Positions 45,066-46,762 of a stretch of 64,000 nt of DNA are shown here, piece after piece. Both the position numbers and the translations under genes were made by a program. The notes below the pieces were generated by a model. The model made no database searches. It was not told where the DNA came from and saw only the letters and a program-made list of their open reading frames with translations. How positions within the stretch are numbered: position 1 is the first letter of the stretch; the number at the start of each line of letters is the position of its first letter. This DNA comes from Roseibacillus sp. (GTDB taxonomy: Bacteria > Verrucomicrobiota > Verrucomicrobiia > Verrucomicrobiales > Akkermansiaceae). The stretch is from assembly GCA_051251855.1 (NCBI GenBank), contig JBPOGI010000001.1, forward strand, positions 1,120,001-1,184,000. Reading direction: 5' to 3'.

Positions 45066-46082
45066 ATGAACTCTGATCTCGCCGAAATCCAAACTGCTGC
45101 CCTTGCTGCTATCGCGTCTGCCTCCGATGGTCAAAGCCTCGAACAGGCCAAGATCGATTTTCTCGGTAAAAAGGGTCGTCTCACTGCCGCCTCGGCTTTG
45201 ATGAAGAGCCTTCCCAATGAGGAGAAACCCGCTTTCGGGCAATCCCTCAACGCCGTGCGCGGTGCCATCTCCGGTGCGTTGGATGAAAAGCAGTCCGCCC
45301 TTCAGAACATCGCCGACCGCGAAGCCATTGCCGGCATCGACATCACTCTCCCTGGCCGCGAGATCCACACCGGAGGCCTACACCCTCTCACCCGCATCAA
45401 AGACGACGCCATTCAGATTCTTCGTCGCATGGGCTTCGCCCTCGCCGAAGGCCCCGAAATCGAGGACGAATTCCATTGCTTCGATGCCCTCAATACTCCT
45501 ACCGATCACCCCGCTCGGAACGAGAAAGACACCTTCTACTTCGACTCCGGCAAACTCCTCCGCACTCACACCTCGTCTGTACAAGTGCGCACCATGGAGA
45601 ACCAGACCCCACCCGTTCGTATCATCGCCCCCGGCTCCGCTTACCGTCGCGACGAAATTGACGCCACTCACCTCTCTGTCTTCAACCAGTTGGAAGGCCT
45701 CTATGTTGCCGAAAACGTGTCCCTAGCCGACCTGAAAGGCACCCTTATCTACTTCTTCCAAGAACTCTTCGGCGCTGAGACCGAACTCCAATTTCGCCCT
45801 CACTTCTTTCCTTTCACCGAGCCCTCCTTCGAGATCGATATCAAGCTTCACATCGCAGGCCGCGCGCCCAAGTGGATCGAGGTTGCCGGTTGCGGCATCG
45901 TAGACCCCGCCGTTTTCGCCGCGATCAGCAAGTCACGTGGAGACGATGCCTTCGACCCAGCCAAAGTCACCGGTTTTGCCTTTGGGATGGGTCTCGACCG
46001 TCTCGCGATGATTAAGTGGGGAATCAAAGACATTCGTCTTCTTATTGAAAACGACACCCGCTTCCTCAAGCAATTCGCCTAG
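45066..46082 (+). CDS. pheS: Phenylalanine--tRNA ligase alpha subunit
   Basis: HPAR..DTFY, LRTHTS, FPFTEPS, GFAFGMGLDR. Confidence 0.97.
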   Translation: MNSDLAEIQTAALAAIASASDGQSLEQAKIDFLGKKGRLTAASALMKSLPNEEKPAFGQSLNAVRGAISGALDEKQSALQNIADREAIAGIDITLPGREIHTGGLHPLTRIKDDAIQILRRMGFALAEGPEIEDEFHCFDALNTPTDHPARNEKDTFYFDSGKLLRTHTSSVQVRTMENQTPPVRIIAPGSAYRRDEIDATHLSVFNQLEGLYVAENVSLADLKGTLIYFFQELFGAETELQFRPHFFPFTEPSFEIDIKLHIAGRAPKWIEVAGCGIVDPAVFAAISKSRGDDAFDPAKVTGFAFGMGLDRLAMIKWGIKDIRLLIENDTRFLKQFA

Positions 46083-46083
46083 G

Positions 46084-46197
46084 CTAATACCCTTGCGTCT
46101 TCATCACGACGAATGCCGCCACAGCTAAGAGAGTTATCACAATCAGGCCAATTCGACCCGACCGGGTCTTGGCTGCTTTACATACCATTCAAATCAT
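46084..46197 (-). CDS. Predicted 37-aa membrane selenopeptide MIUMVCKAAKTRSGRIGLIVITLLAVAAFVVMKTQGY
   Basis: ATG ATT TGA ATG GTA TGT gives UxxC; one TM helix; TAG stop; SECIS-like hairpin within the CDS; absent from ORF track. Confidence 0.62.
46147..46173 (-). promoter_or_regulatory. Candidate bacterial SECIS element
   Basis: GCCAA-GACCC-GGTC-GGGTC-GAA-TTGGC; loop starts 26 nt after the UGA at 46189-46191. Confidence 0.65.
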
Positions 46198-46279
46198 ATT
46201 GGTAGTTTCGCCTGAATCTCAGAAAACTCAACAGAAGATAATCTGTCCTGTCGCTTGAAACTGTGGCTCAATACTTCAC

Positions 46280-46762
46280 GTGAAAACTGCCGTCTACGCA
46301 GGATCCTTCGATCCCCCCACCAATGGCCACCTCTGGATGATCGAACAAGGCCTCGCTCTTTTCGACCGACTCATCGTCGCCATTGGCAATAATCCCTCCA
46401 AAAGCTACACCTTCAGCGTCCCCGAGCGCCTCGAACTCCTGCGTGAGTCCACCGCCCAAAACGATAACCTTCTTATTGAGCATTTCGACAATCGCTACCT
46501 CGTCGACTACGCCAAGGAACAGGACGCCAAATACATCCTCCGCGGCATCCGCTCACCTGGTGACTACGAGTATGAGCGCGTCATGCGACACATCAACAAC
46601 GACCTCGCTCCCACCGTCACGACCTGCTTCCTGATGCCACCCCGCGAACTCGCGCAAGTTTCTTCCAGCATGGTCGAATCCCTCATCGGACCCAAAGGTT
46701 GGGAAGAAACCGTCGAGCGCTACGTCCCCCCACCGGTCTTCCGAGCTCTCAAGGCAAAGTGA
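46280..46762 (+). CDS. coaD: Pantetheine-phosphate adenylyltransferase
   Basis: [29 protein letters not shown]. Confidence 0.95.

Follow-up and report, generated by a model that had tools for sequence, protein, structure and literature searches.

The 64,000-nt stretch of Roseibacillus sp. DNA that we have analyzed (the window, to which all coordinates refer) contains a small open reading frame (ORF) on the minus strand, in the 197-nt gap which separates the co-directional genes pheS and coaD. Its third codon is an in-frame TGA. This ORF very probably belongs to a real family of tiny Verrucomicrobiales membrane selenoproteins which has not been described before. Translation would start at the AUG at 46197, and the UGA at codon 3 would be decoded as selenocysteine (Sec) by SelB-GTP-Sec-tRNA(Sec). 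SelB would be recruited by a Sec insertion sequence (SECIS) hairpin located inside the ORF, with a GGUC loop starting 26 nt after the UGA. The same hairpin would double as the coding sequence for a conserved K-x-[KR]-S-G-R linker. The predicted product has a hydrophobic head (fMet-Leu/Ile-Sec-x-x-Cys), a basic linker and a transmembrane (TM) helix at residues 16–32.

The sequence given in the original prediction, which was made from the DNA letters alone, is confirmed. From 46197 to 46084 the minus strand reads ATG ATT TGA ATG GTA TGT AAA GCA GCC AAG ACC CGG TCG GGT CGA ATT GGC ... TAT TAG, which codes for M-I-U-M-V-C-KAAKTRSGR-IGLIVITLLAVAAFVVM-KTQGY. The flanking genes, pheS (45066..46082, plus strand) and coaD (46280..46762, plus strand), are both confirmed by Pfam, and the ORF is antisense to them. 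Reading with table 11 gives only a 34 amino acid ORF after the TGA (46084..46188, minus strand). The features of the ORF are the following:

46084..46197, minus strand: complete ORF of 37 codons (the in-frame TGA is one of them) followed by the TAG stop; read directly from the sequence, with orthologues in the same genus and in other genera and families
46195..46197, minus strand: ATG start codon, the same in all 23 members obtained from the DNA homology and profile searches
46189..46191, minus strand: in-frame TGA, codon 3, the proposed Sec codon; TGA in 20/20 members from the profile search and in 50/50 and 60/60 members from the pattern searches
46180..46182, minus strand: TGT, Cys6, which completes U-x-x-C; Cys6 in 63/82 unique members
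46102..46152, minus strand: region coding for the predicted TM helix, residues 16–32 (IGLIVITLLAVAAFVVM); 17-residue Kyte-Doolittle mean of 2.98
46084..46086, minus strand: TAG stop, 1 nt from the convergent pheS stop, as originally proposed

The gene is found in many other genomes. In a DNA search of 61 relatives, the pheS-gap-coaD arrangement is only retained in the same genus, where the minus-strand frame is kept in the nine genomes examined (G000–G008). Another genome, G051, comes from a different family and has the same architecture. The pattern in the genus is M-[IL]-TGA-[LM]-x-[CIF]-x-x-x-KTRSGR, after which come some 18 hydrophobic residues and a short tail before the stop. The distance from the TGA to an invariant AAGACCCGGTCGGGTCG is 18 nt in all ten genomes. 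In G007 the gene adjoins coaD, not pheS. A 16-mer search of the order, exact or with one mismatch, gives many one-mismatch matches, a reversed-pattern control being about equally frequent; on inspection, the architecture is found in the same genus and G051 only.

A profile of these ten peptides, with U written as C, has been used for a six-frame search of 401 genomes of the order, with stops read through. It gives 20 matches (E <= 1.3e-5) in 19 genomes, and each of them begins at model position 1 and has a single in-frame TGA, which is codon 3. The matched sequences follow the scheme ML-U-LLC-[KN]A[AT]-[EK][KST][KR]-SGR-I..., followed by a TM helix. They span genera g11 (6/6 sampled), g22 and g42, among others. 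In 400 genomes sampled from the wider phylum, the same profile gives no further match at E <= 0.001.

The largest sets of members come from a degenerate pattern which fits the two forms of the hairpin described below and permits TGA, TGC or TGT at codon 3. It finds 56 sites in 185,579 species-representative genomes, 50 of them family-like, and 69 sites in metagenome contigs, 60 of them family-like. Every family-like site has TGA. The 50 species-representative members are nearly all from Verrucomicrobiales, Akkermansiaceae or Roseibacillus, and two cultured strains, R. ishigakijimensis KCTC 12986 and R. persicicus KCTC 12988, are among the carriers. The ORF, UGA and hairpin of the original prediction are conserved in the same genus, in the order sample, in species-representative genomes and in metagenomes: this comparison shows conservation of the putative Sec codon at codon 3. 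The six other species-representative sites (three TGY and three TGA, in other phyla) have been discarded, they do not contain the family sequence and the TM tail. The nine other metagenome sites (five TGY, four TGA) are unrelated to the family. Some of the unrelated sites from other phyla (L132, L139; L203, L211, L220, L238) are similar to each other, with the sequence ML*-[LF]-[LF]-V/I-L...N-N/D-N/Q-SGR..., and probably are an off-frame view of a widely conserved gene. A different kind of observation is the presence of two paralogous copies in some genomes: G280 (C40:60697-60792 and C72:4546-4638) and a single metagenome-assembled genome (L149 and L167).

The codon-position statistics of the 50 unique members are those of a protein. 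In TM codons 16–30 the mean entropy is 1.46, 0.74 and 1.70 at positions 1, 2 and 3, and T is found at position 2 in 573 of 750 cases (76%). Codons 6–9, which are not constrained by the pattern, vary chiefly at position 3: the entropies of codon 7 are 0.38, 0.38 and 1.70. The other frames have stops in 21–39 of the 50 members. By this comparison the members show a frame with the marks of translation. The upstream side of the UGA consists of only two codons, ATG and a hydrophobic codon, so a test of conservation on both sides is weak by construction.

These results bear on the suggestion that there is no gene at all, the element being instead a signal on the plus strand (a pheS terminator or a coaD leader, for example) or a non-coding RNA, with a fortuitous ORF. 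The hairpin is located downstream of pheS, and on the plus strand the gap folds somewhat more stably than shuffled sequences do (z = -2.0). Nevertheless, the neighbouring genes differ by genus (pheS/coaD, ROK, ThuA, sulfatase, DeoC, DNA ligase, PLD), and outside the genus the element is not beside pheS or coaD. Neither a flanking gene nor the plus strand can therefore account for its conservation. On the plus strand no T-run follows the hairpin, and an Rfam search of both strands of 45900-46450 only gives two sub-threshold noise matches. Together with the strong codon-position periodicity and the stops in other frames, this makes the suggestion scarcely credible.

Another question is where translation starts. 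The first ATG, GTG or TTG after the TGA is found at codon 4 or 5 in 14 members and at codon 16 or later in 20, while 16 members have none. That is, 36/50 have no such codon at codons 4–15, and in these members residues 4–15 therefore need the upstream ATG and decoding of the UGA. The AUG directly after the UGA, from which a selenium-free 34 amino acid form had been suggested, does exist in the window, but only in 5/50 members. Initiation at this second AUG only is untenable for the family as a whole, in view of the 36 members and of the coding-like character of codons 4–9.

The UGA might also be a true stop. There would then be a two-codon AUG-NUN-UGA mini-ORF, the hairpin would be a SelB-binding or regulatory RNA, and the downstream frame would only be made when a chance start is available. 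The SECIS-like element of the E. coli selAB leader is known to regulate rather than recode, which lends some support to this possibility, as do the AUG of the window and the canonical start at codon 4 or 5 of the 14 members mentioned. Nevertheless, codons 4–9 and the TM region are protein-constrained even though most members have no suitable start, the frame is open for 32–41 codons and the conserved start is the upstream ATG. We consider a true stop quite improbable. TGA is also the terminal stop in 14/50 members, therefore UGA is not reassigned in these organisms.

The hairpin of the original prediction, a candidate SECIS element, is present at 46173..46147. Its features are the following:

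46147..46173, minus strand: SECIS-like hairpin GCCAA/GACCC-GGUC-GGGUC/UUGGC, encoding A9-K-T-R-S-G-R-I-G17; from minimum free energy (MFE) folding and comparison
46168-46164 and 46159-46155, minus strand: core stem GACCC/GGGUC, the conserved 5-bp core
46163-46160, minus strand: GGUC apical loop, invariant in the family

In the window copy the gap from UGA to loop is 25 nt, so that the loop begins at the 26th nt, as predicted. The extent of the hairpin has to be revised: the core and the loop are conserved, but the lower stem GCCAA/UUGGC is specific to the source genome and its close kin, without wider conservation. The MFE of the window hairpin is -14.1 kcal/mol in a 36-nt window, with GGUC as the apical loop. 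The bacterial SECIS (bSECIS) consensus model, as set out in the legend of Fig. 2 of a 2026 review (PMC13188914), has a loop of 3–9 nt and an upper stem of 4–16 bp, a G at one or both of the two initial positions of the loop (usually G followed by G or U), a spacing of 16–37 nt and an MFE <= -7.5 kcal/mol. With a loop of 4 nt and a core stem of 5 bp, the window hairpin agrees with the four constraints (loop and stem size, loop G, spacing and MFE). Among the 50 members, GGUC is always present and is always the apical loop of the MFE fold. The contiguous stem has 3–8 bp (3 bp in one member, 4 bp in three, at least 5 bp in the rest), and the MFE is <= -7.5 kcal/mol in 43. An exact 14-mer of the hairpin is single-copy in the genome, and there are only 240 GGUC-capped hairpins with at least 5 bp and at least 3 G-C pairs in 9.9 Mb (both strands). 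The 177-nt fold of the region is unexceptional (z = -0.49), so the case depends on comparative evidence.

Two forms of the hairpin are found. In 11 unique members, which make up the clade of the window, the spacing is 25 nt and the stem is GACCC/GGGUC. In the other 39 the spacing is 30 nt and the stem is of the type (A)GAUCC/GGAUU(U). As a result, the hairpin is displaced 5 nt against the peptide alignment, and S-G-R is still kept. Synonymous sites are invariant in codons ACC CGG TCG GGT, or TCC GGT CGG. In a loop-anchored alignment of 43 distinct 28-mers, the inner five pairs are standard in 43, 43, 43, 42 and 40 sequences. Pair 3 is U-A in 32, C-G in 10 and U-G in one, pair 5 is A-U in 20, G-C in 14 and G-U in 6. 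The compensatory changes expected for a real stem are thus present, C-G/U-A and A-U/G-C. Outer pairs 6–8 are formed in 20–26 sequences, with A-U/C-G and A-U/U-A exchanges. Paired cells amount to 81.4%, compared with 75.5 +/- 1.2 in shuffled alignments (0/500 reach the observed value) and with 30–57% when the partners are slid by 1–3 columns. The pairing even affects the peptide: K, R or T at residues 11–12 covaries with F, V or W at residue 17, because of base pairing (AAA...UUU, CGA...GUU or ACC...UGG). Such comparison shows the candidate SECIS to be under selection at the RNA level. An intrinsic terminator has also been considered for this hairpin, and rejected: A/U-rich flanks are found in one clade only, and not at all in the clade of the window.

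The source genome (4.96 Mb, 13 contigs) has the complete Sec machinery on which the original prediction relies: selA (455.6 bits), selB (331.1 bits, cut-off 242.25), selD (375.9 bits) and a tRNA-Sec (63.9 bits, anticodon TCA by ARAGORN). Both selD and fdhA have one in-frame TGA. In selD, ACGCA-GGUCU-UGCGU comes 32 nt past the Sec-UGA; in fdhA, GUCGCC-GGUCU-GGCGGC comes 18 nt past it. GGUC-capped hairpins are also found 19 nt past the UGA of a VPGUxxT thioredoxin-like (seleno)protein (NF041383, 314.8 bits, cut-off 275), 23 nt past the TGA of an ArsC-family protein, at a UxxS site, and 33 nt past the TGA of a redoxin-like UxxC protein. By this comparison, the candidate hairpin is shown to be the same as the putative SECIS of the lineage. 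The loop shared with these five sites would indirectly support binding of SelB and Sec insertion at the UGA of the candidate.

The distribution of selB points in the same direction. It is found in 124 of the 401 genomes of the order sample (E <= 1e-60). All 19 carriers, which belong to five genera and three families, are among these 124, and the gene is found in none of the 277 selB-negative genomes. In a separate check, 11 of 11 carriers also have selB. In genus g22, where selB is present in 36/53 genomes, the six carriers are all within the selB-positive subset. The comparison shows the candidate gene to be confined to selB-positive genomes, at the level of the sequences searched. One selB-positive genome, G322, has a decayed copy (C49, ~173543-173640) which has lost the ATG, with an insertion near the former TGA, a 1-nt deletion which shifts the frame, and a GGUA loop instead of GGUC. 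This relic supports a link between the parts.

An alternative without Sec is readthrough of the UGA by a near-cognate tRNA, for Trp or Cys, helped by a leaky UGA-C context and the downstream hairpin. UGA-C is the weakest termination context in E. coli, and the base after the internal UGA is C in 34/50 members. On the other hand, the hairpin has the same GGUC loop and spacing range as the five bona fide Sec sites of the source genome, and carriers are always selB-positive (19/19, compared with 124/401 overall). A peptide tolerant of Trp or Cys should have TGG or TGY variants, but there are none among the 110 and 20 members of the pattern and profile searches. This makes readthrough highly improbable.

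The peptides are very short. In the 50 unique members they have 32–41 amino acids, with the exception of four 66 amino acid forms which have a C-terminal extension. Other properties have been determined in 82 unique members. The U-x-x-C motif of the original prediction is frequent but not universal: residue 6 may also be G, Y, L, S, H, N or F. Sec and the adjacent hydrophobic residues are the best-conserved protein features outside the hairpin. A single TM helix is predicted in the family: the most hydrophobic 17-residue window begins at residue 16 in 76/82 members, with a median Kyte-Doolittle mean of 2.88 for the best window (minimum 2.05). In net charge, the flank on the N-terminal side has a median of +3 (range 2–5) and the 8 residues past the helix a median of +1 (range -1 to 2). 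The charge is larger on the N-terminal side in 74 members and equal on both sides in 8. According to the positive-inside rule, which is well established for membrane protein topology, the N-terminus would be cytoplasmic, and Sec3, usually together with Cys6, would be at the inner membrane surface. A sub-clade with U-x-x-G (Gly6) has a C-terminal extension of about 30 residues past the TM helix (L134, L152, L160, L162; L190, L195, L245, L246). Its four copies from the genome collection are the 66 amino acid forms, and the metagenome copies reach the end of the available stretch.

Several points weigh against a family of selenoproteins with these properties. In our literature searches we have found no tested precedent for Sec being decoded two codons past initiation. 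Cys forms exist in most selenoprotein families, a usual feature, although not an obligatory one. We have found no Cys homologue in the 401 and 400 genomes searched in six frames, in 1.84 billion protein representatives, or among the sites of the pattern, which tolerates TGY. Cys at position 3, the form that might be expected in relatives, is thus missing, every family member has TGA, and the usual criterion of Sec/Cys pairs is inapplicable. Two matches which looked like Cys forms (G116 and G236, 27.6 and 20.6 bits) have been rejected, they correspond to a non-TM stretch directly upstream of the ATG of another gene. ATG, TCS-GGT-CG and the T at position 2 of codons 2, 4 and 5 are built into the search pattern, therefore the conservation of these positions in members derived from it is circular; this does not apply to the 23 members obtained by DNA homology or with the profile, which have the same features. 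The C-G/U-A switch of pair 3 mostly splits the two clades, so covariation comes from few independent lineages and independent events are few. Seven of the 50 hairpins are above the -7.5 kcal/mol threshold, at -3.4 to -6.3 (36-nt window). The association with selB is consistent but phylogenetically confounded, with few independent lineages (five genera in the order sample). No Cys at all is present in 13/82 members, which weakens the idea of a redox pair: a selenenylsulfide UxxC couple cannot be the universal mechanism. Finally, the basic linker is partly dictated by the hairpin, and therefore the positive-inside argument is not fully independent.

As to its function, we can tentatively suggest a membrane-anchored selenol/thiol, able to form a selenenylsulfide, with a role in redox reactions or in the binding of soft metals or selenium; judging from the sequences, this is possible rather than probable. 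The neighbouring genes give no conserved neighbourhood: the gene is free-standing, without any guilt-by-association clue, since its neighbours vary by genus. Somewhat more doubtful is another proposal, in which Sec is also inserted but the peptide works as a sensor or regulator of selenium status, or as an accessory subunit of a membrane complex, of the CydX or KdpF type. Its output would hinge almost wholly on Sec decoding, that is, on the availability of Sec-tRNA and SelB, because Sec is at codon 3. UxxC is dispensable in the members without Cys, and the TM helix is conserved mainly in its hydrophobicity, as is the case in accessory subunits. Nevertheless, there is no conserved neighbour or downstream gene for regulation in cis and no identifiable partner, and the best-conserved protein features outside the hairpin are precisely Sec and the hydrophobic residues around it.

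We have compared the family with known proteins. A scan of 23 peptides against Pfam-A and NCBIfam gives no family above the curated cut-off. There are scattered TM-like matches (best E of 5e-4 to 4e-3, in 1–7 of the 23 members), none of them to the peptide of the window. The NCBIfam release scanned reportedly includes the families of Haft & Tolstoy 2025. A hidden Markov model (HMM) search of the 1.84 billion protein representatives finds three proteins of 33–34 amino acids, unnamed singletons. All three begin at profile position 4, so these calls are truncated just after the TGA. There is no comparable family among the 119 prokaryotic selenoprotein families tabulated in the 2026 review, in its available part (PMC13188914), and the available parts of deep-Sep (PMC12013277) and BSepDB (PMC13326102) do not mention membrane or Verrucomicrobial selenoproteins. 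Our literature searches give no description of such a protein. The statement of the original prediction that the family is not a recognised one agrees with all these results.

Like the genes with a SECIS inside the ORF (fdhF/fdhA, selD), the candidate has an in-frame UGA followed by a stem-loop within the coding region. The GGUC loop, with G at positions 1–2, and the spacing of 25–30 nt are also those of bSECIS elements, for which 16–37 nt is given in PMC13188914. In contrast with those genes, its UGA is codon 3 of a 32–41 codon ORF, the SECIS takes up about one third of the gene, the hairpin dictates a conserved peptide motif, no Cys forms have been found and there is no recognisable fold or domain. 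A eukaryotic-style comparison can be made with SELENOK and SELENOS, single-TM proteins of 94 and 189 amino acids with Sec near the C-terminus and a SECIS in the 3' untranslated region. The candidate is also small, with a single TM helix and Sec in a short tail predicted to face the cytosol. This is an analogy of design: Sec is near the N-terminus, the SECIS is in the ORF, and there is no sign of homology, with no Pfam match at E <= 10 beyond TM-like noise. TsoA (LULAXC-motif, NF045695) has a similar motif name, L-U-L-x-C in the candidate and LULAxC in TsoA. However, its model has 144 positions and a cut-off of 170 bits, far longer than the candidate, and it gives no match at E <= 10 to the 23 peptides or to the source genome. 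Finally, CydX, KdpF, AcrZ, MgtS and the type I toxins are free-standing microproteins of 30–40 amino acids with one TM helix, which are routinely missed by gene callers. The candidate is a free-standing small gene of the same size range with a single TM helix. It differs from them in its Sec, and no sequence similarity is detected in the Pfam and NCBIfam scans. We know of no bacterial membrane microprotein of this kind which contains Sec.

Some possible signals for transcription are found around the gene:

46226..46231, minus strand: TTGAGT, -35-like box, 34 nt upstream of the ATG; putative promoter element, from the upstream regions of the family
46203..46208, minus strand: AAACTA, weak -10-like element at -11 to -6; putative, from the upstream regions of the family
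46034..46054, minus strand: terminator-like hairpin with a T-rich tail, 30 nt beyond the stop and antisense to the 3' end of pheS; from a consensus scan

Of 79 distinct upstream regions, 78 have a TTG(C) box whose first base is between 36 and 33 nt before the ATG. Across the 79 regions A is found at -10 in 67% and T at -6 in 65%. If the elements are real, transcription would, with sigma-70-type spacing, start at or beside the AUG. A Shine-Dalgarno-like 4-mer is only found in 10/50 members. The mRNA may be leaderless or have a very short 5' leader. The terminator-like hairpin is a consensus match only, with one found and 0.4 expected. An inverted repeat, ACAGA-N6-TCTGT (46231-46246, minus strand), abuts the -35-like TTG box. 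It is kept in G000, G001, G003 and G006 and is weaker in G004 and G005; this upstream region is shared with the divergent coaD. The repeat could be an operator or a small hairpin.

The GGUC-capped hairpin may be used as a simple detector of SECIS elements in this lineage, and has led to further candidate selenoproteins in the source genome. Two tandem paralogous ORFs of 1,286 and 1,265 codons (C6:418951-422808 and C6:423063-426857), with FG-GAP, ASPIC/UnbV, AhpC/TSA-like and TPR domains, have one in-frame TGA each (...TGDL-U-SVYW...), with a GGUC-capped hairpin 17 nt further on. They probably are large selenoproteins. Three other long frames have an internal TGA and a GGUC-capped hairpin at 18–31 nt (C1:1073305-1074693, C8:391946-393121 and C1:1055326-1056138). 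They match no Pfam or NCBIfam family above the cut-off, and are candidates for additional selenoproteins of unassigned family. The VPGUxxT thioredoxin-like (seleno)protein, of type 2 (C1:1811910-1812782), is directly downstream of selA (C1:1810543-1811745).

In summary, this selenoprotein family appears to have been overlooked by selenoprotein finders and by small-ORF callers alike. The former miss it because they require homology flanking the UGA, or Cys homologues; the latter because the UGA ends the call or yields a truncated ORF of 33–34 amino acids. The family is present in the cultured R. persicicus and R. ishigakijimensis strains, and is therefore directly testable. It provides a test case for the minimal distance between SelB-dependent recoding and initiation, for the constraint of a SECIS on the encoded peptide (K/R at residue 12, which covaries with F/V/W at residue 17) and for the role of selenium at the membrane surface. 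If our interpretation is correct, this is a Sec-containing bacterial membrane microprotein whose Sec codon is two codons away from the start. A bolder proposal, which on present sequence evidence is rather unlikely to hold in full, is that this is the shortest natural selenoprotein family known (32–41 amino acids), with a leaderless or near-leaderless mRNA, Sec at the second elongation step and a strictly selenium-dependent job at the inner membrane surface. In that case, the absence of Cys forms would mean a job which needs selenium chemistry, not a "better cysteine": for example, a selenol-based relay with quinones or lipid peroxides as its targets, or a carrier of selenium or soft metals.

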